From: Bilabrum cf. latius
Lineage: Eukaryota
Direction: 5' to 3'
DNA length: 64,000 bases
NCBI GenBank assembly: GCA_965178125.1
Contig: OZ237740.1
Span: 248,001 to 312,000 of the forward strand
Positions 9,817 through 49,391 of the stretch are shown piece by piece; the stretch's first letter is position 1; each line of letters begins with the position of its first letter. The notes under the pieces were generated by a model. The model did no database searches. It saw nothing but the letters and a program-made list of their open reading frames with translations, and had not been told where the DNA came from. A program made the position numbers and the translations under genes.

Positions 9817-11950
<2,134 letters not shown>

Positions 11951-16599: not shown

Positions 16600-16917
16600 T
16601 CCGGAATCCGGATCCGGATCTGAAGAATTCAGACCACAAAGATCAACAGACTGAAGAGTCTGTGAAGACTACAATCCGGGCAGGGCAGTGCGATATTGCC
16701 TTGGGCTAGGCCTGGCACGACGCTAACCAAAAAAGTTTTCTAGATAATCTCACAGTCGATGGGTAGACTTGGGTTGAGGTGCGATTCTAAGCGTTTTGAT
16801 CCAAAAACCTTCCTGTGTACCCCATACTTTTGAAGGTGACGCGCTCCCACTCTGGCATCAACACCGAACACCATACGGCGTTAGGATCCGGATCCGGATA
16901 AAGCTCATTCTAGCAAA

Positions 16918-17567
16918 TTCAAAAGCGACCTCCCATCACGGATGCTGCAATGCACCACACACTCACACAGCACCCTGCCCCCAGCCCGATTCAAAAGCGA
17001 CCTCCCATCACGGATGCTGCAATGTACCACACACTCACACAGCACCCTGCCCCCAGCCCGATTCAAAAGCGACCTCCCATCACGGATGCTGCACTGCACC
17101 ACGCACTCGCAGCACCCTTACCCCCAGCCCGATTCAAAAGCGACCTCCCAGCGAGGATGCTGCAGTGCACCACGCACTCGCAGCACCCTTACCCCCAGCC
17201 CGATTCAAAAGCGACCTCCCATCACGGATGCTGCACTGCACCACGCACTCGCAGCACCCTTACCCCCAGCCCGATTCAAAAGCGACCTCCCAGCGAGGAT
17301 GCTGCAGTGCACCACGCACTCGCAGCACCCTTACCCCCAGCCCGATTCAAAAGCGACCTCCCAGCGAGGATGCTGCAGTGCACCACGCACTCGCAGCACC
17401 CTTACCCCCAGCCCGATTCAAAAGCGACCTCCCATCACGGATGCTGCAGTGCACCACGCACTCGCAGCACCCTTACCCCCAGCCCGATTCAAAAGCGACC
17501 TCCCATCACGGATGCTGCAGTGCACCACACACCCACAGAGCTCCCTGCCCCAAGCCCACCCAAAAGT
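16918..17567 (+). repeat. Tandem array, ~9 x 71-72 bp (TTCAAAAGCGACCTCCCATCACGGATGCTGCA...)
   Basis: Unit starts at 16918, 16990, 17062, 17133...; same family at 36559 and 63024. Confidence 0.95.
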
Positions 17568-17578
17568 GATGTTACCTT

Positions 17579-20258
17579 TCACTTGCACGTGGCATACACA
17601 GTGGACACACTGAAACCCTGAATGTCCAGCTCATAGTCCTGTTCCGGTACACCGACGGCCAGGGCGCGCCTGGATGCATCGTAGCGAGCTTGCTCTTTCC
17701 CTTCCAGCCTCGAGTCGTACGATGAGAACATACCCGAGTCGAGGCTCCTGTGCTCCCTCTCTGCTTGAGCATACTCTGCACGAGCCGCCTCCAGCCCGCG
17801 CCTGGCATCATCAGCCTCACTGGCCTTTGTTGGAAGGTAGTAGTCTAGCCAGTTCTGCCCGATACCATCCGTCGCCATCACCTGTAGGCACATGTGAGTG
17901 CTGGTGTGACGGTGCTTCTGGGTGGTAGGGAACGGCTTCAGGTCCGACTCGACGTGGAAGGGGTGTCCGAAATTCACACCGAGCACGGCGCGCATTGCCG
18001 TCCTTGGGCCGAAGCTTCTGGTCTCGGCCACAGACTCCAGCCGAGGATACAGACTGCTGCCGCGACTCCCGCTGTTGCAGGCCGATGGAAACTGGATTAG
18101 CAAAGGAGCTGGTTTGCCGCGCAGCGGCTTTCCATACAGAGTCCAGGTGCCTGCCACAGGGAGCCTCTCGCCGATTGTAGTAGCGTCCTCCCCAGGCTCA
18201 GATCCCAATGCCGATGTGCCAGCGTCTGTAAACATCGTCAGTGGGGCCACACGATCCACCGACACTTCCAGAAGCATTGGTGGTATCGCCTCTGTCATCA
18301 CGCTCTTGTGCTTGTCACCCCAGCTCAGCTGAACGCCGTGCTTATACTACATAGGTGTATCGTCAAGCTGACACTGAGTCAACCCCCGCCGCAGCCCGCT
18401 CAGCCCATACGCCTGCAGCTTGAACGTGCTAGCCACATCGGCCGGATCCACCTTGCGGTAGATCACGTTGACTCCCCCGATGCTGTCCTCTCGCCCCTTT
18501 GCACTCGGACTCGGACTCGGCGATGTATCAGGCGACCCCTCCTTGTCGTGCTGCAGCTTGCCAGTCGTGTACACGCCGGCTTCAGACCGAAGCAGGCTGC
18601 CCTCCACCGCGCGGAAGAGCGGCTTCGTCTTGCACTTCTCGCTCCCGATGCTGTGCAGATTACCCCACACCAGCCTCGCGCCTGTTGCCTCCGGCAGCTT
18701 AATCTCCACAGGACGCACGTATCCCACTTCCAGCGGCGAGCAGAACGAGGACGCCAGACACACGTGCCGGGCCTGGCACAGACCGTACGGCTCTGAGTCG
18801 CCTTCGACACCGCACCTAGGCAGCGGGTGCCTGCACGACCCTCCCTCCTGCTCCGCCTCTTCGCGGTATTTATCCGGGCAGTAGTCGCCAGTGCCCAGGA
18901 TAGCATGCAGGGCGCGCTTCCGGATTGCCTCGAGCTTAGTAAGCCGGCATGTCTCGCCCAGCAGCGCCTCTTCCCCCTCGGGCAGCGGCCTGCCGTACTT
19001 GTGCTCGAATGACGTGCACTCCAGGCTAGACGGCGGCTGGAATCGAGTGCTGCGGCGCTTGCCGCACGCTAGGTGGATGCCGCTGCCATCGCCCCCAGCG
19101 GACCCATCAGCCCCTGACTCGCCAGAGACATACGACATATGATGCGACACGGAGCTGAGGCACGCCCTGCACGCGTCTGTCGCCTGCTGGTGGTACTCGT
19201 TGACGATCTTGGTGGTGGTGCTGCCGTCCGGATGCCTGTGCTCGTGCTCTGACTCGAACTTGTTCACGAGAGCAAACTCCGAGTCGTTCAGGTGGCAGGA
19301 CTTGCGGAAGGCCTCGTGCTTCCTGGCCATCTCGTCGCAGTCCTGCAGCGGGTACGGCTTGGCCTCTGGGAATCCATTCGCGCTGCGCTCGTTGTGGATC
19401 TTGATCAGGTAGTTGAGCACCTCCTCGCAGTCTGCCTTGGGCAGGCCCGTCTCAGCCGACAGCCGCAGCAGCGTGCTTGCACCGTGCGACGCAAACACGT
19501 TGTGCGAGGCCTGCCGAATGCGCTCCTGCATGGCGGCTTCGATGAGGAACTTCCTGGCCTTGGCGGCTTGCAGCACCTGGGATAGTGGGATGTCCTTGAG
19601 CTCATTGCCGTCGGCGTCCAGCATCTAGGTATCTCCGGACATGAAGCACATCCTCCCGACCGCTTCCATGCTCTCCACCCTGCCGCGGCTCGACCGCTTG
19701 CCTGCCTCCATCGCTATGCGGGTGCACGCCTCCCAGTCGCCGAAGAGAGCCAGGCCGTGCAGGGCCCAGAACTTCATGTCCACCACGGCCGGCATCGTGT
19801 CCACCGTGGTGGCCCAGCGCTTGAGCCCAGCCATCATCGTCTCGCGGTCCTGCGTGGCGCTGACGAGGCTGGGCTCGCCTCCCCTGACGCTCACCGTGAC
19901 GTCTGTGGCGAGCTGAGCAGTGCGCCGAGACTTGCCGGACGACCACGCCGCGCTGAGATCCACTCCTGCCTTGCCCCCACTGGAGGCCAGCTCTGCCAGC
20001 TGCAGGGCCCGTTGGATGGTGGGCCCGTCCTCGCGGATGGAGCTGGTCTTGTACGAGGTGTCCACGACTTCCTCCCGCCCGTCCACGATGCGGGTGTACT
20101 TGGTGCTGGCGGTGGTGGTGTGGTTGGAGCGAGACGCCGTCAGGATATCACCGACTGAGATGGACTCTGCCGGGTCGAAGCTGGCCTGCAGGGAGAGGGC
20201 GGTGTCGGTGTGCTCGTCCGTGAAGAGCTTCTCGGAGCTGAACTTGCGGGTGACGGGG
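17579..20258 (-). pseudogene. 5'-truncated copy of MACPF gene A (C-terminal ~890 codons)
   Basis: Near-identical to 37292-39970, including TAGs at equivalent positions (19625, 18347); homology stops near 20258. Confidence 0.85.
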
Positions 20259-20450
20259 TAGGTTTCTTCTCTTGGCATGGTTGTGACATAGAACCTGTTG
20301 TGGTTGGGCTGCAGTTCCACGCCTACCTGCGAGTGCTCAGGTGCTGGACCTTTCGGTGAGTGCTCCAATGCCAATCCATCCGCCTGAAGTGCCACGCGCC
20401 GGCAATCCATCGTCCTATTGGATGCCCTGATCCGGATCCGATCAGCTTCC

Positions 20451-22521
20451 AGAATACCAGAATAATTTGTAGGGTAAAGAAACCACACAAAGTAATGTGC
20501 AACCACGAATGGCTGTCACACCCCCAAGGTGGGGCCATCAAAGATGACCTCAGAGAACAACGCGATCAAAAGACCCGCAGCCCCCCCCTAGAGCAAAGGC
20601 CAAAGCCTCAAAAGAAAGCAAAAGAAAGAAGAACCCCTCGTCCCAAAGAGGATTTCCGAAACATCATGGTGCTACACATACCGAGACGATCACCCTGAGA
20701 CTCAGCCACTCATCCACCAAAGGACCAGAGGGAAGGAGAGTGAGCCCGAGCCATCCTCGTAAGGACAGCCGGACCGTCGACACATGCCATCCGCCACCAG
20801 CGGGACGTCCATGTACGACGTAGCTACTCCCTTTCACGCAAGACACAGCGAAGCGAAGTCGCCATCTCACGCGCCCAGATCCTCTCAAGAGTGTGCATGA
20901 GCCCTCTAGGGCGAGCCACACGATGTCCCCTGCGATCCTGAGCTCGCATTGCAGCATACAGGTCATCCGATGAGCTCGCAGTCCAGCCTCGCACCGAGGC
21001 CCCAGTCCACCACCTGCAGGCAGTCCAGGACGGAAACGTTCTGATCTTTACACTCAGCTCATCAACCACCAGTGTCGCAAGCCGTACCAATCCAACAGAG
21101 GCGCTAGAGCGGGCAATTGCTCGGCGCATCTTGGGAATGGTTCGCTCAGCAGCAGCGACTCCACGCCTGTCCTGCTCCAGAGGTTGTGGGTGAGGTTCAA
21201 GACGTAGGCCATGGTCCGCCCATGCCTTCCTTATCTTGCCCTTCTCCTCTGAAGTTCGACTGGCCCAGTCACCGGAGACCCACTCTGCCTGAAGACCACG
21301 TGACTGTAGCGATGACTCTCGGCGAGTCATCTCCCCAGCCACCTTGTCAGTCAGCTCTGGAGTAGGGGAACAGGAACGAGGGTAAATACCCGCACGAACA
21401 CGAAGGATCAATCGCCCGTCGGAGCCACGCAGTTGCAGTGCTGCAGTGGTAGGCAGTGAACCAGGGCCGAACACCCCATCAACCTGACCATGGTACTGGT
21501 CCAGTGACACTGTCTGTTCTGCATTCTGCTGCCTGATTGCGCTCGCCAGGACGTAACCGGAGTGGCATCCAGGGCTCAAGTTCCTGAAAGACCTGATGCT
21601 AGAAGCAGACTTCGACGAGTGCCAACGGCGCACCGCTCGATTCAGCTCCTTCTCACCCAGCCAAGTCACTCCGTTGTCAACAGATACTCCATTGTCATGA
21701 AGGTGAAGCCTGAGAGACGCCGCAGCACTAAGAGGTCCCTGCTGCGACATCTACTGGCACATGTATGCAGTCCGGATGTAGTGAGATACCACTGGTAGAC
21801 CCCTCCTATCTGGGGCTCGCATGAGCTCAAAGAGGTCCCGTGCGGTCCTTCCGGCAGCACTCGCAAGCCATACCTCAGAATCCAACGCCACTTTCGGCAA
21901 GCGACGTCCTTCGACGGCAAATGGCATACGGTCAGCCATTCCAGTGGCCAGCATCCACCTCATGCGTGCCAGGAAACGGTCCACTACACTCAGCACAGCT
22001 GCATTCATGATCACGCCGTAGTTCACAGAGATCCGCTGTTCCAGACCTCGGAAGCGTTCCCAGCCAGTGGCGCATCCAGCAGCACCAATGCCATAGAGCG
22101 CGCTTGTGAGCGCTCCAGAATAGAGAATCTGGGAGTGTAGACGAACCGACCAATCACAGTCAACTGCAGCGCGGGTTATGATGGACGCTTGTTGCATCGC
22201 CATTGCCACCCTTCGCCGAACGTGGGGGACCATGTCAATGGCTATCACGTCCCTCTCTTCGTAGCCGGGCCCAAGCTCTGCTGCTGTGGCATGGATCCTC
22301 GTCGTCGATATCAGCAACCCTAGATACACATACGACTTCGCGCGGGGAACGGTCCATGTCTGTTCTACCCATGATGGGTTCACTTCCGTGGCTGTACACG
22401 CGATATCGTCGTCCCACCCACGGGGAAAGGAGTCGGCTGCAAGTCCAAACGGCATCATGGCAGTCTTCTTCGCGAGCCCTGATGGGCTCACTGGTCGAAA
22501 TCCAAGCTCAAGTCCGGCTTC
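20451..22521 (-). mobile_element. 5'-truncated LINE (RT C-terminal/thumb region) with (ATTCTGGT)n-type tail, copy 1
   Basis: SYVYLGLLI..HVRRRVAMA..ILYSGALTSALYG resembles the thumb region of APE-type LINE RTs; ORF reads through TAG 21751 and 20824 to TGA 20710; tail TATTCTGGTATTCTG. Confidence 0.65.
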
Positions 22522-24110: not shown

Positions 24111-24242
24111 TGGCTTCGCGGCCACTTCATTTGTAGCGTGTTAGAACCGAAAACCCACTTAATTGACCAATTATCAAGATGAAGAAATGAAATTGCGACT
24201 TTCGGAAAGGGATCTTCATTCTACCAGACTCTCTCCCATACA

Positions 24243-25652: not shown

Positions 25653-25911
25653 TCGGATCAGGGGAATACAGACCACAAAGATTATAAATTCGGAATTTGG
25701 AATCTTGATCAACCCTTAATAAGTTACTCTAAGACTCTCCAGAGCAGGCCTGCACGTTATTAAGGGCAAAACCTTAATAACGTGCACCCAAGCTCGGCGA
25801 TTAAGGTGGGTATTAAGGAGATTTTCAAAATAATCCATTTTGTGGCCTGCCCTAAATCCGTACATACTTTTTATTTTCATATTCGCGTATTGACAAAATG
25901 AACCCACCTTG

Positions 25912-32790: not shown

Positions 32791-33154
32791 AGGAGAGAAT
32801 ATAATATGTCTGAGTCAAAGCACACACTACCCAACTACAACGACCACCCCAAGAGGCAATCGCACTGGGCAGGTCGAACGGATCAGCACTGCGGAGGAGA
32901 GAGAGAGAGAGAGAGAGGGCAGCTAGGGGGGGGAGGGTAGAGAGAAAGGGATGGGGGGGGACGACGGTTCACCGGAACGGGGGAGGAAATGGTGGAGGAA
33001 AAGATGATCGGTGGGGTCATTGGGTTGATGAGGCGGATAGGAAGGGGGAGGCACAGGCCGGGCAGGTGTGGGTTGGGCATGTGTGACGAGTGACTCGGAT
33101 CAGGGGGATCGGATCACCGACCACATGCGGATGTGGAAGTTGAGAGGTCACAAT
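32791..33154 (-). mobile_element. Non-autonomous bipartite derivative of the RLE non-LTR element (5' end + 3' end only, ~365 bp)
   Basis: 32791-32887 equals the element 3' UTR and tail; 32888-33154 aligns with the element 5' end at 62371-62666. Confidence 0.8.
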
Positions 33155-33712
33155 TAGACTCGAGCGGCAATCAAGCCGCGTGCTATTCGGGCGCTGAGGG
33201 GCAGCGCTCGCCAGTTCTCTTTTTTGGTAACTTTGAGGATGGGCTCTCGGAGGAAACCAACTGCAACCATGTGTGACTGTCTGCGAGATTAGGGTGCTGT
33301 GTACAACGTGTGATCTCATCGGCGTGGCGCCTGACGAGTGCGACCACCTGGTGGAGTGCCGCATTCTAGGTTACATTAGTTTACTACACTAAGTGGCGGT
33401 GGTTGCCCACCTCCACCCATCATCCCAGGGGGTAGTTTTGTTTGATACGGACAGTGGCTGAACGGACAAGCCCACCAGCCAAACAACACACAGCCGTCCC
33501 AAAGGGAACCAGAATAAGACAGAGGAAGATGCCCCCGTAACAACACGGATTTGATTGTTCACAATCTGGTCCGAAGTACCGCAATTGCGGACTCACTTGG
33601 TACTACAGGTGTCTTCTTTTGTAATTTCGAGTGACTGCCGGTGAGCGCTCTGCGGGGGGATATGATATTTTGTGGACTCAACTCAAAAGCGCACGATATC
33701 ACGAAGAAACAT

Positions 33713-34010
33713 CTGGAACGAGGGCCCGGGACCTACCAGACTTCACGCTTCAGCTGCAATGGCCTAAACCACCTAAGCTCCACCCTGGGGACCCATTTCC
33801 CCCTGGGGAGCGTCAGCATTCACGTTCCCTCCGGCGCCCGCTGCCGGTACCCCGTCCTGCTGCCCGTTCTGAGCCAACCCTGCCTTGACGTTGGCGATCG
33901 CCACGGCGAGGTTGTTGTTTTCGGCTGCCCCTACAGCCAGGCTGGCAAAGTCCTCCCGGACCGCCCTTGCGAGCGCCCGTTTGGCCTTCGCTGCAGCCCT
34001 CCTCGATCCC
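33713..34010. repeat. ~300-bp dispersed duplication (second copy 48419-48716), possibly the 3' end of another retroelement
   Basis: CTGGAACGAGGGCCCGGGACCTACCAGAC...CCTCGATCCC is present twice; minus frame ends in an Ala/Gly-rich tail with TAGs then TGA. Confidence 0.75.
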
Positions 34011-35164
34011 TTCGAGACAAAATCGAGGATCCTTGAGTGGTCCTGCATGACCCGTGAGTACATAGTGTGGTACACACGCTGTTCCCCGCGCACGTGCTGG
34101 TGCTAGGCGGCAACAGCGCTCTGCTCAGCCGGTTAGTAGCGTGCACTTTTGTGCTAGAATGAGATATAACTAGAAGTGATCGCAGCATCTCCAAGCCTGT
34201 TTCGGCTGCGCGTTGCTGCTCATGCGTCACCCGCTCAAGGAAAGCGATCGCCACTAGTATGGCATGCTCGTGGCTTAGTGGTGCATGTTGCATGCGCCGT
34301 CCCAGCGCTAGCAGCTGCGTCCTCATGGGCCCATCAAGGGCGCGGAGGGTAAGCTCAGCCTCTGGCCAGCCGCCCGCTGCCATCAACGCAGCCTCCACTG
34401 CAGTCGACAGACGCATCTATTCGTCCTCGGTCTCCTTCAGGGCCGCCTGCCGCTCAGCCGTCCAGGGGTGCAGCCACGCTCGTACTGCTTCGGTCCACTT
34501 GCTGGGCACCGCTGCCACGCCAATTGCGGCAGGCCCGGGGCCACTGCTGAAATCCAGTGCTGGGGGTTGTCCAAGAGGAATAGAACCCAGAGGCTGCCTG
34601 GCCTATGCTGGGGTTGCCTGCCGAGGCCGGCTGCCGGCACGAGGCCCGGCACCAGCGCCTGAGGAAGCTCCACCCAGAGCTTCACCCGCAGCCCCTGCCG
34701 GGGCTCTGGAGGCCGACACCGAGCTCCCGGCGTGCGCATGTGCGTAGTCATCATCCGCCTTGCGAGACAGTAAACGAAGGTGTCCGCGTCCTGCGCCGTT
34801 GTGTTCGGCTCAGGGAGTTCCAACCACATGGCGAAGGACGGGAAGGAGTCAGGCAGGACCGTGGAATGGGGCCTTCCATGCACACCCTTCATGGTGACCA
34901 CCGCTGTCAACAAGTATCGAATCATAGATTCAATTATCTGTGCGCGCTTAGGAGACCCCCTCCGTACGCCTTTGATGGTATCGTTCCACTGCGCCTCGAG
35001 CGCAAGAAGCCGGTCTACAGTGAAACCACACACGTCCGTCACCGTTGCCCAAAGCATTGGATCAGACAAGGTCCCAAAGCATGCCTCAAGAAGGAAAATT
35101 GCACGTTGGAAACCGGGTTCTTTCAAGGCCAACGTCGTGAAAATGCCACGCCAGAACTGTTTTT

Positions 35165-36555
35165 TGGTAACTGCCAACCAGTGGGGATTGTAGCAGCCGT
35201 GAAGATGAGCCAATGAGTGTGGTTGAAGGAACAAATCTGATCTGTAGTCTAGGTTCATGTTATATGGACTCGGACATCAGGATTGAAGCAACGGGGAGCA
35301 GAGGTGAGACGGAAGACGAGGTGGGCGCAGGAGCACAGGAGGTGGAGAAGAAGAGGGGGACACCGGCACAGGCGACGACAGTGCGGTGTCAACAGGGAGA
35401 ACACAACGGGGGGAAGGGGGCTCCAGGTGCAAGGCACGAGGGAGACACGGGTGGCAGCGGACTGCATGGCCAGCAGCACGCAGAAGGCCAACAGGTGGGT
35501 GGACAGATGGGGCGCACGGCAGGTCGGCCAGGACCGGCGCGTGCAAGCTGAAAGGATAGGGCCAAGGTGGCAATGCTGGGAGCAAAGCACACGGTCCCTA
35601 GGGCGGGGAACAGGAACAGGAAGCCATGTGGCGACGAGGCCAGTCGGGTGCATGGGGAAAGTGGTGTGTACATTCGTAGTGTCAGATGAATACCGCATTC
35701 AGGTGGACCGGTGAAGAACCAGTCGTTCGGGGTGAAGCCCAGTGGGTCCGCGGGACCGGGGGCAGGAATTTTTCTTCCAACTCAGGTGTGGACGGCCGCG
35801 CTGGCACATGCAGCGCGAACTGTGTGCAAGTAATGGAAGTAATGGTAACTGCCAACCAGTGGGGTTTGCAGCAGCCGCGAAGATGAGCCAATGGGTGTGG
35901 TTGAAGGAACAAATCTGATCTGTAGTCTAGGTTCATGTTATATGGACTCGGACATCAGGATTGAAGCAACGGGGAGCAGAGGTGAGACGGAAGACGAGGT
36001 GGGCGCAGGAGCACAGGAGGTGGAGAAGAAGAGGGGGACACCGGCACAGGCGACGACAGTGCGGTGTCAACAGGGAGAACACAACGGGGGGAAGGGGGCT
36101 CCAGGTGCAAGGCACGAGGGAGACACGGGTGGCAGCGGACTGCATGGCCAGCAGCACGCAGAAGGCCAACAGGTGGGTGGACAGATGGGGCGCACGGCAG
36201 GTCGGCCAGGACCGGCGCGTGCAAGCTGAAAGGATAGGGCCAAGGTGGCAATGCTGGGAGCAAAGCACACGGTCCCTAGGGCGGGGAACAGGAACAGGAA
36301 CAGGAAGCCATGTGGCGACGAGGCCAGTCGGGTGCATGGGGAAAGTGGTGTGTTCATTCGTAGTGTCAGATGAATACCGCATTCAGGTGGACCGGTGAAG
36401 AACCAGTCGTTCGGGGTGAAGCCCAGTGGGTCCGCGGGACCGGGGGCAGGAATTTTTCTTTTTGGTAACTGCCAACCAGTGGGGTTTGCAGCAGCCGCGA
36501 AGATGAGCCAATGGGTGTGGTTGAAGGAACAAATCTGATCTGTAGTCTAGGTTCA
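35165..36555 (+). repeat. Tandem duplication, ~678-bp unit (two copies plus a partial third)
   Basis: TGGTAACTGCCAACCAGTGGGG at 35165, 35843, 36463. Confidence 0.9.
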
Positions 36556-36558
36556 AGG

Positions 36559-37280
36559 TTCAAAAGCGACCTCCCATCGCGGATGCTGCAGTGCACCGCA
36601 CACTCACACAGCACCCTGCCCCCAGCCCATCTCAAAAGCGACCTCCCATCGCGGATGCTGCAGTGCACCGCACACTCACACAGCACCCTGCCCCCAGCCC
36701 ATCTCAAAAGCGACCTCCCATCGCGGATGCTGCAGTGCACCGCACACTCACACAGCACCCTGCCCCCAGCCCATCTCAAAAGCGACCTCCCATCACGGAT
36801 GCTGCAGTGCACCGCACACTCACAGCACCCTGCCCCCAGCCCATCTCAAAAGCGACCTCCCATCACGGATGCTGCAGTGCACCACGCACACACACAGCAC
36901 CCTGCACCCAGCCCATCTCAAAAGCGACCTCCCATCACGGATGCTGCAGTGCACCACGCACTCACACAGCACCCTGCACCCAGCCCAATTCAAAAGCGAC
37001 CTCCCATCACGGATGCTGCAGTGCACCACGCACTCGCACAGCACCCTGCCCCCAGCCCATCTCAAAAGCGACCTCCCATCACGGATGCTGCAGTGCACCA
37101 CACACTCGCAGCACCCTGCACCCAGCCCATCTCAAAAGCGACCTCCCATCACGGATGCTGCAGTGCACCACACACTCGCAGCACCCTGCACCCAGCCCAT
37201 CTCAAAAGCGACCTCCCATCACGGATGCTGCAGTGCACCACGCACACACACAGCACCCTGCACCTACCCCACCCAGCAGT
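36559..37280 (+). repeat. Tandem array, ~10 x 70-72 bp
   Basis: TCAAAAGCGACCTCCCATC units, same family as 16918. Confidence 0.95.
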
Positions 37281-37291
37281 GATCTGACCTC

Positions 37292-40200
37292 TCACTTGCA
37301 CGTGGCATACACAGTGGACACACCACGTCCCTGAATGTCAAGCTCGTAGTCCTGTTCCGGTACTCCGACAGCCAGGGCGCGCCTGGATGCATCGTAGCGA
37401 GCTTGCTCTGCATCATTCAGGGTCTGTTCGGGCGTCGAGAACCAGCCTGAATCTAGACGCCTGTGCTCTCTCTCTGCTTTGGCATACTCTGCACGAGCCG
37501 CCTCCAGCCCGCGCCTGGCATCATCAGCCTCGCCAGCCGACGTCGGAAGGTAATGGTCCAGCCAGTTCATACCAGTACCACCCGTCGCCATCACCTGCAG
37601 GCACATGTGAGTGCTGGTGTGACGGTGCTTCTGAGTGGTAGGGAACGGCTTCAGGTCCGACTCAACGTGGAAGGGGTGTCCGAAATTCACACCGAGGACG
37701 GCGCGCATTGCCGTCGTCGGGCCGAAGCTTCTGGTCTCCGCCATGGATTCCAGCCGAGGATACAGACTGCTACCACGACTCCCGCTGTTGCAAGCTGATG
37801 GCAATTGAATCAAAAGTGGAACTGGTTTGCCGGGCAGCGGCTTCCCATACAGAGTCCAGGTGCCTGCCACAGGGAGCCTCTTGCCGATTGAAGTAGCGTC
37901 CTGCCCTGGCTCAGATCCAGCAGCGGATGTGCCAGCGTCTGCAAACATCGTCAGTGGGGCCACGCGATCCACCGACACTTCCAGAAGCATTGCAGGGCTC
38001 GCCTTATTCACCGCGCTCTTGTGCTCATGATTCCAGCTCAGCTGAATGCCATATTCATACTACATCGGTGCATCATCCAGCTGACAAGACGTCAACCCCC
38101 GCCGCAGCCCGCTCAGCCCATACGACTGCAGCTTGAACGTGCTAGCCACATCGGCCGGATCCACCTTGCGGTAGATTACGTGGACTCCCCCGATGCTGTC
38201 CTCTCGCCCCTTCGCACTCGGACTCGGACTCGGCGATGCATCAGGCGACCCCTCCTCGTCGTGCTGCAGCTTACCAGCCGTGTACACGCCGGCCTCGGAC
38301 CGAAGCAGGCTGCCCTCCACCGCGCGGAAGAGCGGCTTCGTATTGCACTTCTCGCTCCCGATGCTGTGCAGGCCACCCCACACAAGCTTCTTCTTCGTGG
38401 CCCCCGGCAGCTTGATCTCCACAGGACGCACGTATCCCACTTCCAGCGGCGAGCAGAACGAGGACGCCAGACACACGTGCCGGGCCTGGCACAGACCATA
38501 CGGCTCTGAGTCGCCCTTGACACCGCACCTAGGCAGCGGGTGCCTGCACACCCCTCCCTCCTGCTCCGCCTCTTCGCGGTACTTATCCGGGCAGTAGTCG
38601 CCAGTGCCCAGGATCGCATGCAGGGCGCGCTTCCGGATCGCTTCGAGCTGGGTCAGCCGGCACGTCTCTCCCAGCAGCGCCTCTTTCCCCTCGGGCAGCG
38701 GCCTGCCGTACTTGTGCTCGAATGACGTGCACTCCAGGCTAGACGGCGGCTGGTATCGAGTGCTTCCGCGCTTGCCGCACGCCAGGTGGATGCCGCTGCC
38801 ATCGCCCCCAGCGGACCCATCAGCCCCTGACTCGCCAGAGACATACGACATGTAGTGTGACACGGAGCTGAGGCACGCCCTGCACGCGTCTGTCGCCTGC
38901 TGGTGGTACTCGTTGACGATCTTGGTGGTGGTGCTGCCGTCCGGATGCCTGTGCTCGTGCTCTGACTCGAACTTGTTCACGAGAGCAAACTCCGAGTCGT
39001 TCAGGTGGCAGGACTTGCGGAAGGCCTCGTGCTTCCTGGCCATCTCGTCGCAGTCCTGCAGCGGGTACGGCTTGGCCTCTGGGAATCCATTCGCGCTGCC
39101 CTCGTTGTGGATCTTGATCAGGTAGTTGAGCACCTCCTCGCAGTCTGCCCTGGGCAGGCCCGTCTCAGCCGACAGCCGCAGCAGCGTGCTTGCACCGTGC
39201 GACGCAAACACATTGTGCGAGGCCTGCCGAATGCGCTCCTGCATGGCGGCTTCGATGAGGAACTTCCTGGCCTTGGCGGCTTGCAGCACCTGGGATAGTG
39301 GGATGTCCTTGAGCTCATTGCCGTCGGCGTCCAGCATCTAGGTATCTCCGGACATGAAGCACATCCGCCCGACCGCTTCCATGCTCTCCACCCTGCCGCG
39401 GCTCGACCGCTTGCCTGCCTCCATCGCTATGCGGGTGCACGCCTCCCAGTCGCCGAAGAGAGCCAGGCCGTGCAGGGCCCAGAACTTCATGTCCACCACG
39501 GCCGGCATCGTGTCCACCGTGGTGGCCCAGCGCTTGAGCCCAGCCATCATCGTCTCGCGGTCCTGCGTGGCACTGACGAGGCTGGGCTCGCCTCCCCTGA
39601 CGCTCACCGTGACGTCTGTGGCGAGCTGAGCAGTGCGCCGAGACTTGCCGGACGACCACGCCGCGCTGAGATCCAGTCCTGCCTTGCCCCCACTGGAGGC
39701 CAGCTCTGCCAGCTGCAGGGCCCGTTGGATGGTGGGCCCGTCCTCGCGGATGGAGCTGGTCTTGTACGAGGTGTCCACGACTTCCTCCCGCCCGTCCACG
39801 ATGCGCGTGTACTTGGTGCTGGCGGTGGTGGTGTGGTTGGAGCGAGACGCCGTGAGGATATCACCGACTGAGATGGACTCTGCCGGGTCGAAGCTGGCCT
39901 GCAGGGAGAGGGCGGTGTCGGTGTGCTCGTCCGTGGAGAGCTTCTCGGAGCTGAACTTGCGGGTGACGGTGTACTCCCCTCCCATCGCGATGCTCGTGGA
40001 CACGAGTTCACCATACGTGTTAAGGAATCCAAGGTACTGATCCTGTACCCAATCAGGGACAGAGGCCCACAACTTCTGAAGGCCCTCGCGGCCGAGCGCC
40101 TTGCCAGGATAGAAGTCTTTGATGTACTCCACAGCATTGGAGGTGACGCGTAGTTGCAGAACTGCTCTCTTGAACTCATCCGTAAGCAGCGTCTCGTCAA

Positions 40201-41146
40201 GCACCAGCTGGCACTCAATCGTTTCAAGTGCATCGTCAGTGGCTATTCCGATATCAAGGGGCCCTGCCCGTACTTCATGTGGCAGTAGCGGCGTAGTTGA
40301 TCCATCTTTCCTGGCCTTATCCAGGCAGCCGACAGCGTAGATGCTCTCTGGAACACTCAGTGAATGCGTCAAGATGGTGCGGGTGGTAGAAACGGTAGTC
40401 CCTTCATTAGCAGACTGCTGCGAAGAATCTGAAGACGTTGATGCGCTTATTCCAGCTACAATTGGACCTAAAGCGGCGCTGAGTCCGAGCTTGGTAGCGC
40501 GCTACGATGCCACATCGACGGCATCGCTACAGTGCTGCGCAGTACTGCTCGAAGTTGCCGTTGCCCTCCTCTACAGGTCAACCTGCGCAGCCATAAATCA
40601 ATTGAGGTTGCATCATTCTAGTCGTTTTTATTCATTTCATTTTCCAGTAGGCAGAATACCAGAATACCAGAATAATTTGTAGGCAGTATGACGAGTGTAA
40701 TGTTGCGCGCATTTCTTTTATTCGGATTTGGTTCTTGCGACCAAATTGTGGGCGCGCGCGCCCGGAAACATCGGGGGATCCGCATCATGGCTCCCAATGC
40801 GATCAATCCGCTCGAAATACAAACGAAGCAAGCTTACATCAATTCAAATATGATACTTAGCTCAAATTCTGTATAATCAAGATCTCACATAATCTGGGAC
40901 CCACACCATCCCCGTCGGCGGCAAAAAGTTACACTTTCCAGCAGCAATCGCTGTATTTTGTAGGACTTGACCGAGCTTGTAGTCCGGAAAACCGGTTTTT
41001 CCGATTGAAAGAGTTGAAAATGATGATCCTATGGCGTCCAAACCAGATACTGGCTTGCAGAGCTGGGCTGACCGCAATAGTTCATCTTCGGTAGCAGCTC
41101 GCACCTTGGTGCATGTAAGGGCAATCACAGCCAGCAAATAGTACAT
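37292..41146 (-). CDS. Secreted MACPF (perforin-like) protein A, ~1180 aa
   Basis: Signal peptide MYYLLAVIALTCTKVRA; intron 40583-40888; LTDEFKRAVLQL, YLGFLNTYGELVSTSIAMGG (MACPF signature-like), VSVRGG..WATTVDTMPAVV; Cys-rich C-terminal half; in-frame TAG 40571, 40502, 39338, 38060; ends TGA. Confidence 0.8.
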
Positions 41147-41435
41147 ATCTGCTGCAAAACGTTGAACAGGAGGCAATTTGAGACACCTGCGTGCTTCAAG
41201 CTGCAAATCTGTCAGAGTTGTGGTTGCAATTTGTCAACAGCATTTCCAGATTCGGAGCTGTCCAGGCGATGAGCAGACCTGTTTGCTCCACCTGCAGCTA
41301 TTTCCAACCACTAGCTGGGATAATAACGTCCATCTGGAAAGCATGCAGCTATTTTGTAACAATACAGTGCACTTGAAAGCTGCAAGGTGGCCGTGGCCAG
41401 GTGATGCAGGAATTGGCCAACGCCACCGGCTCTTC

Positions 41436-44400
41436 ATGCTGGCAGCTATTTTACTCTGCATGGCCCCGCTGGTCCGCTCGAAAACAACCAAGGGGCTCAA
41501 TCATACCATTATTGGTATGCATGAGCTGGGTAGAGGGCAGTCTGAGTGGACTCAAGATCCTATTCCGTCAATCCTTCTGTGAGCTCGCTCGATACTACAC
41601 ACACCATAAATCAAGAAGCTTTTCGACGCAATCCGATCGCCCGAGTAACCTGTTTAAATGATTTGGCGTCTACTACCTACGTTCAGCTCCTGTATTCCGT
41701 GTGTCGCAGGCTGTAGTGTGACGTGACAGCTGAAAAATCTCTGGGCTTCCTGTCGCTGCAAATCTTGCAAGGCAGCAATTCTCATGAGGCTCTTTAGTCT
41801 GCAGCATCCGGTATGATGCGTACAAGGGCTACTACGTACGATCCCCCAGCGACGCAGTGCACGGCTCTCGATCACCCCCTTCTGCAAGGCCAGTTGCTAC
41901 CCCATCATGTGGCCTTCCACCAGATGTCCCTCGCAACCTCAGAAAAAGACTGCCGGTCTTCCGACAGGGCAGTCAAAGCTTCAACCTCATCTTCGTACAC
42001 GATTGGACTGTCTGGTATGATCCCAACCCCTGTACTGACGCTCGACCTGGGGTTCTCGGTGTCCAGCAGCCACTCACTCGAGACTAGCACAGCCACTCAA
42101 GCCCGTGTTGTTTCAGTGTCAGAGACTCTCGAGACATACGGATTGAGCTTGCAGGGCCTTGCATTGACTCCTTCGTGTGAACAGAAGCAGGGAAGCGGCA
42201 TGGCATGCGTGTCTGGGTCATCCTTTCCCCTCAAGCAGCAGTACAAGCAGGCGGTTGAGTCGTTGCCTAGCCCACCGTCATGTTTGGAGAACAGCACCGA
42301 GAAGCTACCCGCGAGCGGCCTAAACCTTATGGGGCTGCATTTCCACCATAGCAGAGGTACAACCATGGTAGTCGCCACGGTCCTCGGCGGCAAGATCTCA
42401 CTGGTTTAGAGCTTCCAGCAGAACGAACGGGACGAGAATGAGGAGAGCGAGCAGTCCTATACCGCCGAGGTGTCCATGGAGAAGCTGTTAACGACAACGA
42501 CAGACATTGCAGTGTCAGAGGCAACTACTTCGCATCATTCTACTGTGTCAGATGGAGCCGGCGGAACCATCGAGCATACAACTGAGACAAAGGTCGTAGC
42601 GAGCCAAGAGACTGGACCTGAGGTGGTCAACGGCGACCGAGATTCTGCGGGCAGCCAGTACGCCAAAGGAGAAGCGGCAAAAGGGCTTGATTCAGTCATG
42701 ACTGTAGCCAAGGGGGCAATGGACGCTGCCAGTGGGGCACACCTTAAGCTGCAATTCGGCATGCAGTCAAAGCAGTCCCGGTCTTCCGCAGCAAGCGATG
42801 CTCTTGATCGTGTTCAAACAGAGGTGTCTGGAGGCATCGTTGGGCTGACGTCAGTGGCGCTCAGCCCTGAAGGGGGCGTCAGCGGGTCTGAGGCCGCATC
42901 GGCAGAGATTCATGGAGTGTCTCACTGGGTGGGGTCCGTCCAGTCCGGTGGCACACCCCAGAGCCGTACCACGCAGAGCTTGCCCGTGGCAATCGTGGAC
43001 GAATCAGGATGCACCCCTGCCAATAGCCTGGAAATGATGCTTGCCGTGGAGAACAAGCAGTGGTGGCGAAAGGAAGCCACGGACCCCTAGGAGCAGCCTA
43101 TCCAGGACCTTTCAGCGCCAGATGAGTCCATCTCTTCGGAAGAAGGCGAGGCCGGTGGCAGCGACTCCAGTCCGCGAGCACCAGAAATTGGCAGCCTCGA
43201 GCAAGACGAAGGTGGCGAGACCGATGCATTGCTGCAGACAGCAGTGCATGGGCACACAGAATCGGCGCTCGACCTGGCCTAGAAGGTGTTCGAAACCGTC
43301 CACCAGGACGGTAGCGCCAGCAAGCCTCTTCACAACGTGTTGAAACAGGCCGCCAGTAGCAGTTTGAGCAGCGCCCACTCCATCCGCTTCAAGAACTTCG
43401 GCACCTTGCTGCAGTCTGCAGCTATTGCCACGAGTCGGAATGGAGGGGAGTCCTGCAGGTCGCTGCCGGGGATCGCCCAGACCGCAACGAGCGTCCAAGT
43501 CCTCGAAGACATCGGCCTGATGTGCTGCCGCGGCGGAGTCCACTGCCTGCCACGCGATCGTTCAACTGCAACGATGAAAACTGCAATGCGTGCGGAGCAT
43601 GCAACTGCCTCGGAGTGGGTGGCGGCAGCCGGTGAGGCCAACGGTGAGAACGGCACCGTCACCCGAGCGCTGCTGGTTGCCGCTGCCGTAGAGCTGAGCA
43701 CGATCGCGATTCCAAGCGACGCTGTACTGGTCGTGTCGGCGTCGTGCTGGCAATCTGAAGCTGTTGAGGCCACGTCTGGCATCGGAGATCGAACGGTGGT
43801 GGCGTACTATGACCAGGACTTGGAGACGTGGCTTGTGGCAGACAAGGATGCACCCCGGCTGCTGACGATGACGGAAGCGTTCGGGTGCCTCCCAGCCGTG
43901 GACTTGTCCGAGGACGCCGAGGCTGCAATCCTGCTGCCCCGCAGCAAGACCGAGCACTTTGAGCCGAAGGCCTACGTTGCCGCGCTGCTCGCCTCTCGTT
44001 TCGTTGCCGAAGGAGACACCGAGCTACTACGCACGCTCATGACACGGGGCGTGATCAATTGGGCAGACATGGACCAGGAGCAGAGTTTCGCGCTGTAGGC
44101 CTACCAGCAGGAGCTAGAGGCTGCCGGTATTCTCCAAGCTAGTAGCAGCAGCAGCGACTCGGAGCGGAGCGCAATCCTGCTGCAGTCACAAGGAGCCTCG
44201 TTCTCCTCGTCCGTGCGACTGGAAAGAGGTCAGCACCGGAGACTGCGGCGGAATCGAGCAACGCGGCATGGGCATCTCCGGCACGATGCCGGGCATTCTG
44301 TCGCAGTCCAGCGTGGATTCCCTCATGTCAGGGTGCTGCAAGCGTCGCTGCGCGGGGTCGGGAGCATGCTACACGACGAAGACGTCAGTTTTCCTGCCTC

Positions 44401-44989
44401 ATACATCGACACCCTCGGTGCCGAGCGAGACCTGAGGTACAACGAGGAGAAGCTGTGGAAGCAGCACGACGAGTCGCTCCAGAAGGAGGTCTGCGTGAGC
44501 GGCGGCACGCACCGCGTGCTGGCCCGGCGGCAGTTCCTATCGAAGACCAAGCAAGTGCTCCTTAACCTTTACAAGCAGCTACGGGTTGTGAACAAACAGG
44601 CAGAGCACGTGACGGTGAGTGCGCTCGGTCTCGGCGAAAATCTATGCAAGAGGGATTCTGCACGCACAGGACGCAGGGGGCGCTCTGGGGTCATCTCTAC
44701 CCTGGGCACAGCAGGTGGGATCGCTCGGAAGGCAGCTCCTCAGTGTGAGGACAGCGCCGTCATGCATTCCACGTCCTCCGCCGTCAGGAACATCGCGAAA
44801 ATGTCCGATGGAGGCTCTAGCACAGCAACAGCTGTGGCAAGCGAGCTTCGGGAGACAGTGATAAGGCTGGCTAGAGCTCGGGTGGAGGCAGACACCCCGG
44901 AGGTGACTACCCCTGGTGGCGAAAGCGCTGGCGCGCACACGCCAGCTCGTGATGCCTAGCCCTAGGAGCAAGCACAAGCAACAGTTTGA
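41436..44989 (+). CDS. Secreted MACPF (perforin-like) protein B, ~1110 aa (5' exon structure inferred)
   Basis: Signal peptide MLAAILLCMAPLVRS, GMHELGRG; LKQQYKQAVESLP, FHHSRGTTMVVATVLGG, EVSGG..WVGSVQ; one frame 41807-44989 broken only by TAG (42407, 43088, 43280, 44096, 44957, 44963); ends TGA. Confidence 0.72.
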
Positions 44990-45002
44990 AGCGTTGGGTA
45001 AT

Positions 45003-45790
45003 TTTGACACGGTGGGAGTACGGTGCTGGCTGCAGGGGTGGCAGCAGCGCCTGAGACGGGTGGTCGCTTTTTGACACGGCGGGAGTACGGTGCTGGCTGC
45101 AGTGGTGGCAGCAGCGCCTGAGACGGGTGGTCGCTTTTTGACACGGCGGGAGTACGGTGCTGGCTGCAGGGGTGGCAGCAGCGCCTGAGACGGGTGGTCG
45201 CTTTTTGACACGGCGGGAGTACGGTGCTGGCTGCAGGGGTGGCAGCAGCGCCTGAGACGGGTGGTCGCTTTTTGACACGGCGGGAGTACGGTGCTGGCTG
45301 CAGGGGTGGCAGCAGCGCCTGAGACGGGTGGTCGCTTTTTGACACGGCGGGAGTACGGTGCTGGCTGCAGGGGTGGCAGCAGCGCCTGAGACGGGTGGTC
45401 GCTTTTTGACACGGCGGGAGTACGGTGCTGGCTGCAGGGGTGGCAGCAGCGCCTGAGACGGGTGGTCGCTTTTTGACACGGCGGGAGTACGGTGCTGGCT
45501 GCAGGGGTGGCAGCAGCGCCTGAGACGGGTGGTCGCTTTTTGACACGGCGGGAGTACGGTGCTGGCTGCAGGGGTGGCAGCAGCGCCTGAGACGGGTGGT
45601 CGCTTTTTGACACGGCGGGAGTACGGTGCTGGCTGCAGGGGTGGCAGCAGCGCCTGAGACGGGTGGTCGCTTTTTGACACGGCGGGAGTACGGTGCTGGC
45701 TGCAGGGGTGGCAGCAGCGCCTGAGACGGGTGGTCGCTTTTTGACACGGCGGGAGTACGGTGCTGGCTGCAGGGGTCGCAGCAGCGCCGA
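45003..45790 (-). repeat. Tandem array, ~11.7 x 67 bp, nearly perfect
   Basis: GACACGG units at 45006, 45073, 45140...45743; minus strand TCAAAAAGCGACCACCCGTCTCAGGCGCTGC is related to the 70-72 bp family. Confidence 0.95.
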
Positions 45791-45939
45791 AGACGGAGGC
45801 TCGCTGAACAACTGTACTCGCTTTATATTCTCTTTGTACGCAATGCACATGGTGCCATACGTACGCCACCAACGTGTCCAGCGCACCAGACCTACAGCAG
45901 CAGAGGCCACGGCGTCCGCCGCTTCACGCTACCGTGCCC

Positions 45940-47852: not shown

Positions 47853-49391
47853 GATGGCCTCGGGCTTTGGGGGATCTGATATTTTGTGGACTCAACTCAA
47901 AAGCGCACGCTATCACGAAGAAACATCTGGAGCTGATAGCGGCAACCAATGCGAACGCCCGACTACAGCGACGGATTTTCAAGCCCCACGGCTTGCTAAA
48001 GGATATAGAGAGGCAATGGGCCAAAGGCATGAGCGCGTGCATGCTCGCCTCTCTGAAGGATCGTGAGACGCAGAGACGGTCATGGAGGAGGAAATGGTGG
48101 GTCTCGACCGGGGACCCCGATGTGGGACTGGACCGCGCCTTGTGCCGGGCACACGCTCCGCACCTGTATGCTTTCTCCTTGTGAAGGCAACAGGCTGGGG
48201 GCCTGTGGGGGACCACACTGATGGCGAAAAATGGGAACTCGGCGGCATAGGCTGAGAACGGGGGGCCTTTGGCCTGAAAGGGTCGGGGGTCTTGTAGTCC
48301 TTTATTTTTAGGGCTCCTCTGGATCTAGGTGATCACCCAAACCCCCTCGGGGGCGACGGTGCATTTGGGTGTTTATGGAATCTTTACCCAACAATGTATT
48401 TCTGTATTTCTGTATTTTCTGGAACGAGGGCCCGGGACCTACCAGACTTCACGCTTCAGCTGCAATGGCCTAAACCACCTAAGCTCCACCCTGGGGACCC
48501 ATTTCCCCCTGGGGAGCGTCAGCGTTCACGTTCCCTCCGGCGCCCGCTGCCGGCACCCCGTCCTGCTGCCCGTTCTGAGCCAACCCTGCCTTGACGTTGG
48601 CGATCGCCACGGCGAGGTTGTTGTTTTCGGCTGCCCCTACAGCCAGGCTGGCAAAGTCCTCCCGGACCGCCCTTGCGAGCGCCCGTTTGGCCTTCGCTGC
48701 AGCCCTCCTCGATCCCCTCGGGCTCTCGATAGTTTTTGTTGCGTGTGATTATCTTAATACGTTATTACTAATTACAGGAGAGGAAGGGACGGAGGGCGCT
48801 GCCTGGGGCAGGCCTCCAGGAGGCGGGTCAGACCAGAAGAACGGGGAAGGGGCAGGAAGGTCAGGGCGTCCTCCACCCCCATGGCCCGACGGAGACGGGA
48901 ATGGGGACATGGGTGCAATGGGCTGGTGGAGTCCGGCACTCAATAGTCATCGCGACACCTCCTGCGCAGCAGATGGTGCCCATGACTCGGCTAAACTATT
49001 AACTTCTATTAGCCGAGTTCATGGAGCTGTCGTCTTGCCTGTGGTGGAGAACGCGCGAGGCCTCCGGTGGATTTTGAACTGGCAACAGTTTCCACAGAGC
49101 CGGAATCGGAAAGGAGCTGGCATGCCGGTGGTCGGGAAGCCCTCCTATGGGTATCGAGCCCGAGACTCCAGGAGTTTCAGTTGCGCCACAACCCCACCAC
49201 GGCGGGGTATAGGCGTTTCTGGATCATCCTGAGTGAGCTCGGAAGTCTCGATAAGTGCCACAGAGAATTAGTTTTGGGCGAGGGTCCAAGGCGAGGTCTC
49301 GAAGGTGATGATGACGATTGATTATGAAGATACGACTTTTTACAGGACTTTCGGAAAGGGATCTTCATTCTACCTAACCTCTTCTCATACT

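Follow-up and report, generated by a model that had tools for sequence, protein, structure and literature searches.

The MACPF/CDC fold combines a bent central sheet with two clusters of helices, which refold as hairpins, and the MACPF signature reads (Y/W)-G-(T/S)-H-(F/Y)-x6-G-G. The perforin-like proteins (PLPs) of apicomplexans, PLP1 of Toxoplasma and PPLP1-5 of Plasmodium, form small paralogous families that lyse host or vacuole membranes. Complement components C6, C7, C8 and C9 are diverged MACPF paralogues, some of them genetically linked, that assemble into one pore. Foldback-type transposable elements carry terminal inverted arrays of tandem repeats, and the SIDER elements of Leishmania are repeated 3'-UTR cis-elements that co-regulate sets of genes. 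Here we describe two divergent genes, A and B, each followed by a tandem array, in a contiguous stretch of 64,000 nt (the window) from what looks like a GC-rich, intron-bearing, protist-type eukaryote. We put at about even the chance that they are a fixed divergent pair of lineage-specific secreted MACPF paralogues, co-expressed and with 3' minisatellites that are part of the gene unit.

Gene structure, splicing and genetic code

Genes A and B lie head to head. Their start codons are at 41146 on the minus strand and 41436 on the plus strand, leaving 289 bp between the two ATGs, in agreement with the initial annotation, which had described a head-to-head pair about 290 bp apart. Local GC falls to ~50% in this spacer (41147..41435), which is probably a bidirectional promoter together with the 5' UTRs of A and B. 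Gene A (41146..40889 joined to 40582..37292; 1182 aa) has a first exon whose coding part, 40889..41146, specifies 86 aa comprising a hydrophobic N-terminus and the beginning of the MACPF domain. Within the 306-nt intron (40583..40888, minus strand, GTGAG..GCAG) there is, at 40659-40683, a solo 25-bp piece of a repeat terminus. Exon 2 (37292..40582, minus strand) has 1096 codons, four of them in-frame TAG, and ends in a TGA stop at 37292-37294; it encodes the MACPF domain followed by a Cys-containing C-terminal region of ~700 aa without a family match. Gene B (41436..41578 joined to 41710..44989 on the plus strand; 1140 aa) is built similarly: the coding part of exon 1 (41436..41578; 47 codons plus 2 nt) specifies a hydrophobic N-terminus, the intron (41579..41709) is 131 nt long and again GTGAG..GCAG, and exon 2 (41710..44989) has eight in-frame TAG codons and a TGA stop at 44987-44989. 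The C-terminal ~650 aa of B gave no family match, and Pfam revealed no known domain in the C-terminal region of either protein. The signal peptides (MYYLLAVIALTCTKVRA in A, MLAAILLCMAPLVRS in B) were assigned by eye from the hydrophobic N-termini.

Splicing was read from contigs of several runs, of which X1 and X7 are by our guess RNA-like and X2 is DNA-like. The gene A joint 40580->40887 (cut +2) and the gene B joint 41578->41710 (GT..AG) were both present in X1 and X7 contigs, where the exons opening at 41146(-) and 41436(+) were joined to the main ORFs; spliced forms of A and B co-occur in these two runs. X2 and X8 contigs passed unspliced through the intron(s). If X1 and X7 are DNA, the joints would represent intron-less alleles and not transcripts. 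One X7 contig was unbroken over 41788-45043, and an indel seen in gene B was 24 nt long and in frame. On the gene A side, X1 and X7 contigs reached 41211; in both runs contigs ended at that position and began at 41336, with X2 passing through the spacer (a weak hint). A single X2 contig spanned the 5' ends of both genes.

The gene pair noted at the outset is real; what had been missed is that neither gene is intact unless TAG is read as sense and one intron is removed. Under the standard code, A and B both shatter into pieces. A reassigned stop codon thus hides such genes, and public protein sets probably hold only fragments of them. The spliced frames of A and B were open in a frame check, with no internal TGA or TAA. 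Reading TAG as sense yielded ORFs of 1520, 1403, 1334, 1147 and 1101 aa, against 908 aa for the longest ORF under the standard code, and TGA was the terminator in all 15 long ORFs. TAG was retained at the identical codon in 13 of 17 paralogue comparisons. In-frame TAG codons of gene B were compared with homologues: all five homologous residues at four TAG positions were Q, two of them at codon 288 and one each at 515, 579 and 851, an argument that would be circular if the database homologues had themselves been called with TAG as Q. In a conserved kinase, the two TAG positions sit on variable columns. The 64,000-nt window held no suppressor tRNA. Taken together, the host probably reads TAG as Gln and terminates at TGA. 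Eukaryotic nuclear codes in which UAG, usually along with UAA, specifies glutamine are described in PMC5304391 and PMC2984419. The present case resembles these codes in having sense TAG where homologues have Q and TGA as terminator; it differs in that TAA was neither in-frame nor terminal in the 15 ORFs examined here.

Tandem arrays and partial gene copies

We delimited the arrays with TRF. Behind gene A lies an A-type minisatellite at 36560..37271 on the minus strand (end 37261/37271; 72-bp unit x9.8, 95% matches, units of 70-72 bp), and behind gene B a B-type minisatellite at 45002..45796 on the plus strand (67-bp unit x11.9, 99% homogeneous, core GGGTGGTCGCTTTTTGA). The first begins 20 nt past the gene A stop (array end 37271) and the second 12 nt past the gene B stop (array start 45002), each in sense with its gene, much as the earlier estimate of ~15 bp from each stop had it. 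Written in the sense of the adjoining gene, the units (GCAGCATCCGTGATGGGAGGTCGCTTTTGA... for A, GCAGCGCCTGAGACGGGTGGTCGCTTTTTGA... for B) align over their full length and are ~70% alike, and none of 1000 shuffles reached the observed score, so that the proposed relationship between left and right units holds. The alignment score was 46 in the same gene-relative sense and 8 in the opposite orientation. The arrays had also been said to face each other like subterminal repeats. They are indeed related and inverted, but this follows from divergent transcription: each array comes after its own gene in that gene's sense, and with the genes head to head the arrays look inverted.

A core, GGGNGGTCGCTTTT, occurred 38 times, always within four arrays, against 0.03 expected occurrences, and the core GGGAGGTCGCTTTTGA was invariant in the A-type array. 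In all 16 unique A-type units the 16-nt core was invariant, and B-type units have almost the same core; elsewhere the unit varies. Both arrays finish in the same unit phase. The RNA-fold z-score was -3.15 for A-type and +0.17 for B-type units, and the shared hairpin showed little covariation. RNA-like contigs entered the B-type array by ~40 nt, and contigs of RNA-like runs gave depth in the bin of the A-type array (36560..37271). These contig ends and the summed depth weakly indicate that the arrays are transcribed.

Self-BLAST bore out the reported recurrence of the array and gene A junction. A second copy (16917..20260, minus strand) consists of an A-type array, at 16917-17532 (TRF, 71 bp x8.6) or extending to 17566, and 2.7 kb from the 3' part of an A-like gene; 16919-20260 is 92.7% identical to 36632-39973 over 3358 bp. 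Homology stops inside the MACPF domain, the ORF at 17579..20506 gave no Pfam match, and neither a B copy nor a B-type array was found in the vicinity. A third copy (63012..64000, minus strand), which runs off the end of the window, has an A-type array (63012-63525, 70 bp x7.3) and the 3' end of an A-like gene; here 63523-64000 is 89% identical to 37161-37638. The window contains a single gene B and a single B-type array. Each of the three duplicated A-type segments stops at the outer array edge, with unrelated flanks beyond, and the arrays may therefore mark duplication breakpoints.

The most likely history under our preferred reading, a fixed pair of paralogues with arrays as part of the gene unit, is that an ancestral gene and its array were duplicated in inverted orientation, so that both genes would have inherited arrays; later segmental duplications would have copied arrays together with the 3' part of A. 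The arrays would then belong to the gene/3'-UTR unit as a putative shared 3'-UTR element. With a conserved core of ~30 nt and 10-12 repeats per mRNA, they might be a common post-transcriptional cis-element through which the stability, storage or translation of these mRNAs for potentially self-harmful pore formers is controlled.

Alternatively, and in our judgement rather unlikely, the arrays are functionally neutral minisatellites that lie at the 3' ends by chance and count only as recombination-prone DNA: non-allelic exchange or replication slippage within them makes the A-family duplicates, and the A-type and B-type units stay recognisably similar through occasional conversion of one inverted array by the other. 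The exact coincidence of all three A-type segments with the outer array edge, beyond which the flanks are unrelated, fits this explanation. So do differences from copy to copy in the number of units (8.6, 9.8 and 7.3) and in their length (70-72 bp), an array divergence of 9-13% between paralogues with ~7% coding divergence, the lack of an RNA-structure signal in B-type units and the 99% homogeneity of the B array, which is typical of concerted evolution. However, a start 12-20 nt past both stop codons and a common unit phase at the end are unlikely for independent neutral insertions. A neutral origin also sits poorly with a 16-nt core that stays invariant in A-type and nearly so in B-type units while the remainder drifts, and with units ~70% alike behind coding regions that show no nucleotide similarity at all by self-BLAST.

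A more specific proposal, which we regard as unlikely, is that the units are a dedicated 3'-UTR control module. A single RNA-binding protein or small RNA would recognise the ~30-nt core, of which each mRNA has 10-12 copies, and would hold silent or co-localise the mRNAs of two complementary MACPF subunits until release; A and B would then be made together and form a hetero-oligomeric pore, and the arrays would have been kept since the inverted duplication, travelling with each new paralogue. The one unusual feature of the locus is a non-coding minisatellite family kept directly behind the stop codon of two paralogues whose proteins are only ~20% identical. If selection keeps the arrays there, they would offer a simple handle on co-regulating potentially self-harmful pore formers; if not, they exemplify minisatellites that mark duplication breakpoints in an expanding effector family.

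A as a MACPF protein and B as a probable one

The Pfam profile match places gene A among the MACPF proteins, residues 137-377 of the exon-2 ORF matching positions 45-196 of PF01823 with 40.8 bits (E 3.6e-10), above the gathering cut-off of 21.5. Its best PDB sequence match among MACPF proteins was complement C9 (E 0.67), and word-based searches returned no relatives. The whole gene B ORF, in contrast, gave no Pfam match at E<=10 and so did not reach the MACPF gathering score; its exon-2 N-terminal part scored an insignificant 7 bits (E 8.1) against the MACPF profile. The early description of two MACPF genes is thus established by Pfam for A, whereas B, lacking a match of its own, is probably a very divergent MACPF protein, with the domain in the N-terminal ~430 aa of exon 2. 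This assignment draws on direct comparison with A. The local alignment of the A domain with B scored 104, a value reached by none of 2000 shuffles and none of 2000 block shuffles, and composition-corrected blastp of B against A gave a co-linear alignment with E 0.039. MAFFT aligned YGELVSTSIAMGG with RGTTMVVATVLGG, which have the same x6-GG spacing, as well as later GG and W motifs. In the signature region A reads Y-G-E-L-V-x6-G-G and B reads R-G-T-T-M-x6-G-G; the spacing and the GG are kept, and the H is absent from both.

Gene B has just nine relatives among 1.84 billion cluster representatives. One homologue, P0007 (38% identical, E 3.7e-38), matched Pfam MACPF positions 4-140 with 20.2 bits (E 7e-4), slightly below the cut-off of 21.5. 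A PDB sequence search with gene B and P0007 gave no match, and AlphaFold2 models had a mean pLDDT of 28.4 (B) and 34.4 (A), too low to serve as fold evidence.

We consider it quite improbable that B, a Ser/Thr-rich secreted protein in that case, is unrelated to A, with nothing in common but a promoter region and similar composition. The empty Pfam search, the modest BLAST E value and an hhalign probability of 1.9% for the B family against A are what such a protein would give. The block shuffles, which preserve local composition, however, never reached the observed score; the alignment is co-linear across the whole domain with the signature spacing retained, and P0007 gave its MACPF match. The homologous 3' arrays at equivalent positions likewise favour common descent of both gene units. 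In each protein a hydrophobic N-terminus and a pore-forming domain would then be followed by a long C-terminal region, unrelated between the two and presumably used for targeting, and the target membranes that they may lyse could be those of prey, a host or a competitor. With this locus the perforin-like proteins gain a branch that is very divergent and restricted to one lineage.

Mobility and comparison with known systems

It is highly improbable that everything from one array to the other moves or amplifies itself as a two-gene toxin cassette of foldback-like type, with the arrays as subterminal inverted repeats. In favour of such a cassette, related arrays stand inverted on either side of the pair, repeats and retroelements abound in the region, and 360-bp direct repeats lie farther out (33655-34014 and 47869-48720). 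Against it, the window holds one full unit, its other copies being an array and a 3' portion of A that breaks off inside the gene; the arms are just ~70% alike, unlike terminal repeats of an active element; and both genes have spliceosomal introns, with one X2 contig over their 5' ends, as for a resident locus. Fixed ends and target-site duplications were sought in the window, where the outer flanks of the arrays were unrelated and showed neither. The initial annotation had seen no transposase, and by Pfam neither A nor B nor any of eight flanking ORFs has a domain of a transposase or integrase. The RVT_1 ORFs of the window, at 26-31 kb and 55-63 kb, are not part of the A-B unit.

Compared with foldback elements, the locus shares two short-unit arrays that face each other around a central segment; it departs from them in its arms, which are only ~70% alike, and in having no target-site duplication, transposase or second full copy in the window. 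Like apicomplexan PLPs, A and B are predicted to be secreted protist proteins with a signal peptide, an N-terminal or central MACPF domain and a lineage-specific C-terminal region, which in PLPs targets membranes. They differ in that sequence similarity was detectable through the Pfam profile and no further, in being TAG-recoded, in carrying 3' minisatellites and in having no known C-terminal domain that we could find. The TSP, LDLa and EGF accessory modules of complement were not detected in A or B, and the complement membrane attack complex provides a precedent, by analogy, for a putative A+B hetero-pore. The arrays differ from SIDER elements in being a tandem minisatellite, confined in this window to one gene family; they resemble them as a sequence family that several genes carry in sense in their 3' regions, which by analogy may provide a post-transcriptional handle.

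Genetic code, gene models and host

Read with the standard code, genes A and B (the head-to-head pair, probably both perforin-like, or MACPF; A on the minus strand, B on the plus strand) fell into pieces, with ORFs abutting in frame, for example at 39337/39338. With TAG as a sense codon, long ORFs appeared throughout the window, including one of 1100 aa with 4 TAG codons on the gene A side (37292..40594) and one of 1147 aa with 8 on the gene B side (41546..44989). In-frame TAG codons are found, for instance, at 39338-39340, 19625-19627 and 21751-21753. Reading TAA as sense gave almost no gain in ORFs, and reading TGA as sense did not lengthen the longest ones. All 15 long ORFs examined terminated with TGA, and TAA occurred in these 15 neither in frame nor as terminator. 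In 13 of 17 comparisons between paralogues, TAG was retained at its codon. Codons 288, 515, 579 and 851 of gene B, all TAG, are Q in the database homologues P0004, P0007, P0005 and P0008 (5/5 residues), a result whose weight depends on the code with which those proteins were called; the fragmentary lengths of the homologues suggest standard-code calling. Because of the uniform TGA ends, the retention of TAG between paralogues and the Q residues in homologues, it is well supported that TAG is a sense codon, probably for Gln, with TGA as terminator. UAG-to-Gln reassignment is a known kind of nuclear code (PMC5304391, PMC2984419).

The window also encodes an AGC-type protein kinase (9899-11950; closest to S6K1 in the PDB, E 2e-96). 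It has a single intron, two in-frame TAG codons and, N-terminally, a domain resembling myosin TH1. Both codons fell on variable columns of the kinase alignment and did not identify the amino acid. The kinase intron, the reverse-transcriptase domains in several ORFs and the GC content of ~59% mark the window as eukaryotic. No tRNA, suppressor tRNA genes included, and no Rfam family was found in the window.

To define the gene models, we compared contigs of four public sequencing runs over 37120-45150. Two of these, X1 and X7 (from two studies), are RNA by guess only; run depth and parts without contig cover were used for no more than the weak hints named as such. In contigs of X1 and X7 an intron is missing from each gene, 306 nt from gene A (40583..40888, minus-strand GT..AG) and 131 nt from gene B (41579..41709, GT..AG); contigs of X2 and X8 are unspliced across both introns. 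The introns are real even if X1 and X7 are DNA, in which case the joints would be intron-less alleles. Gene A thus reads 41146..40889 + 40582..37292 on the minus strand (1182 aa) and gene B 41436..41578 + 41710..44989 on the plus strand (1140 aa), each with an open frame, a TGA stop and an intron of the form GTGAG..GCAG. Gene B has no further intron, since one X7 contig spans 41788-45043 without a break. Both proteins begin with a hydrophobic, signal-peptide-like N-terminus, as judged by eye. Contigs of X1 and X7 both end at 41211 and both begin at 41336, and an X2 contig passes through; this hints, weakly, at 5' ends of the genes that border a spacer of ~125 bp inside the 289-bp ATG-to-ATG interval. 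The two genes are probably co-expressed.

Some contigs differed from the window sequence. One contig of X7 carries a 24-nt in-frame insertion at 43222, in the C-terminal region of gene B. X8 contigs diverge at 41761 and at 43230, a sign that the middle of gene B may differ in the X8 organism. Organism D likewise seems to differ over ~41.8-43.2 kb, and from X2 and X8 the gene pair would seem to occur in several strains. Contigs of X1 and X7 depart from gene A at 37587 and 39292, with one joint 37607-39258, a pattern that points to expressed paralogues of the A family whose 5' or 3' parts are mosaic.

Relation of the two proteins to the MACPF family

The initial annotation described both genes as MACPF genes. 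For gene A this description stands: the protein matched Pfam PF01823 with 40.8 bits (E 3.6e-10), and by sequence it is a MACPF protein. It is a distant one, the best match among solved MACPF proteins being C9 at E 0.67, and word-based homologue searches (near-length and shorter) yielded none for it. For gene B membership is probable, though unproven and, like that of gene A, judged from sequence. The whole gene B ORF gave no Pfam match, and its N-terminal part matched Pfam MACPF insignificantly (E 8.1). The gene B family aligned with gene A in hhalign at a probability of 1.9%. Neither PDB sequence and profile searches, run with P0007, gene B and the profile of its family, nor a near-length homologue search with the gene B protein, which has 9 relatives among 1.84 billion cluster representatives, gave a match.

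Membership of gene B is indicated by direct comparison with gene A and by one homologue. In blastp the two proteins aligned co-linearly with E 0.039. Their Smith-Waterman score of 104 exceeded all of 2000 shuffles (maximum 86) and all of 2000 block shuffles that kept local composition (maximum 99). The MAFFT alignment matched the two domains over their full length, with identically spaced signature regions YGELVSTSIAMGG and RGTTMVVATVLGG and with matching GG and W motifs further on. The homologue P0007, 38% identical to gene B (E 3.7e-38), aligned with positions 4-140 of the Pfam MACPF profile (E 7e-4); its 20.2 bits lie below the Pfam cut-off of 21.5 bits. The C-terminal 650-700 aa of A have no relation to those of B, and neither region is related to any family.

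AlphaFold2 gave an unusable model of the gene B exon-2 N-terminal domain from a 4-sequence alignment (pLDDT 28.4). The model of the gene A domain, from an alignment to which the B family had been added, was likewise unusable (pLDDT 34.4). Since the method also failed on the Pfam-validated gene A, its failure on gene B discriminates nothing.

Homologous tandem arrays behind both genes

Tandem Repeats Finder placed the left, A-type array at 36560-37261/37271 (72-bp unit, 9.8 copies, minus strand) and the right, B-type array at 45002-45796 (67-bp unit, 11.9 copies, 99% matches, plus strand). Further arrays of 70-71-bp units lie at 16917-17532 and 63012-63525. In the sense of its own gene, the left unit starts GCAGCATCCGTGATGGGAGGTCGCTTTTGA and the right unit GCAGCGCCTGAGACGGGTGGTCGCTTTTTGA. 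The two units, ~70% alike, could be aligned over their entire length with a score met by 0/1000 shuffles; the opposite relative orientation scored 8 versus 46. The core GGGNGGTCGCTTTT occurred 38 times in the window, always within the four arrays (0.03 expected), and a looser core revealed no additional sites in the window and no single copies behind other genes. The arrays begin 20 nt after the stop codon of gene A and 12 nt after that of gene B. The claims that the units are related through a common core and that the stops lie close to the arrays were thus borne out, and the arrangement of arrays and genes is real, far beyond chance. In public stretches from metagenomes (n=119) and prokaryote genomes (n=116), all 80 loci in each set among the matches listed held isolated single matches to the core GAYGGGWGGTCGCTTTT and no tandem; these look like chance hits.

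Both array types occupy the same place behind the stop and have the same end phase. A 16-nt core was invariant in 16/16 unique A-type units, the remainder of the unit being variable. The coding regions of A and B are without nucleotide similarity to each other, and the proteins are ~20% identical. We favour the reading that the arrays were inherited with the gene unit under some constraint, given their position, end phase, ~70% identity and invariant core despite the lost similarity of coding nucleotides. Most simply, the arrays would then act as a multi-copy 3'-UTR element that gives A and B common post-transcriptional control. Contigs of the RNA-like runs X1 and X7 enter the arrays, and both runs show depth in the array bins; these are two weak hints. 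A serious rival is that the arrays are neutral minisatellites or recombination-prone DNA. The RNA-structure z-score was -3.15 in A-type units against +0.17 in B-type units, covariation in the hairpin of the units was weak, and by these two measures a hairpin common to both types was not established.

Each array follows its own gene in the sense direction, so an inverted arrangement is obligatory for divergent genes with homologous 3' ends. The inverted orientation noted initially is correct; its interpretation as subterminal repeats is not supported.

Duplicated segments, surrounding repeats and known systems

The junction of array and gene A recurs as had been noted, in copy 2 (16919-20260 versus 36632-39973, 92.7% match) and copy 3 (63523-64000 versus 37161-37638, 89% match). 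Copy 2 consists of the array and the 3' 2.7 kb of gene A, broken off inside the MACPF domain; it gave no Pfam match, and upstream of it nothing is B-like. The array-to-array unit occurs once in the window, with no second copy of gene B or of the B-type array. On their outer sides, the three A-type arrays have mutually unrelated flanks without target-site duplication. A transposase-like domain was found in neither A nor B nor eight flanking ORFs, in agreement with the initial annotation. The initial interpretation holds in part, for a probable and probably co-expressed MACPF pair; the proposed mobile two-gene cassette is not supported: there is a single full unit in the window, the duplicates hold the array and part of gene A only, target-site duplication and transposase are lacking, and the arms are ~70% alike. 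One contig of the DNA-like run X2 holds the 5' ends of the pair and X8 holds parts of both genes, as expected for a resident locus. One part of the mobility idea survives: the arrays may be duplication breakpoints, since every A-type duplicated segment ends at the outer edge of its array.

The neighbourhood is rich in other repeats. A tandem repeat of ~678 bp without Pfam match (34437-36560) adjoins the left array at its outer end (35165-35776 versus 35843-36460, 98%; third, partial copy 36459-36555); its period above 500 made TRF miss it. A 2.07-kb tandem duplication (20445-24111; 20445-22040 versus 22517-24111, 99.7%) carries in each copy a TAG-containing ORF of 500-600 aa without family match. 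The 25 bp with which this duplication begins (CAGAATACCAGAATAATTTGTAGG) stand solo in the gene A intron (40659-40683), where X1 and X8 contigs diverge; this repeat terminus is all that the region upstream of copy 2 shares with that intron. A direct repeat of ~360 bp (33655-34014 and 47869-47931 + 48418-48720, 97-99%), its right copy split by 486 bp, flanks the 14-kb gene-pair region; outside it lies a retroelement terminal fragment (32709-32888 versus 50806-50985, 96%). Several retroelement copies with TAG-recoded RVT_1 ORFs of 1300-1400 aa occupy 25905-31280 and 50887-62697, two of them inverted (54918-57507 versus 61724-59135, 98.8%), with terminal repeats of ~600 bp at 50887, 53698, 54304 and 58525. 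A gene of 470-530 aa without family match is present in three ~90%-identical copies (15001-16599, 24243-25652, 49233-50801), one convergent with the truncated copy 2, the array lying in between.

In the literature searched, no paper linked MACPF with stop-codon reassignment. The locus is a new, very divergent addition to the MACPF proteins, and its one unusual feature is the unexplained conserved 3' minisatellite. The A and B proteins would be expected to act like MACPF pore formers, the group in which sequence places gene A. The closest analogies are the perforin-like proteins of apicomplexans and, should A and B form a hetero-pore, the complement set C6-C9.
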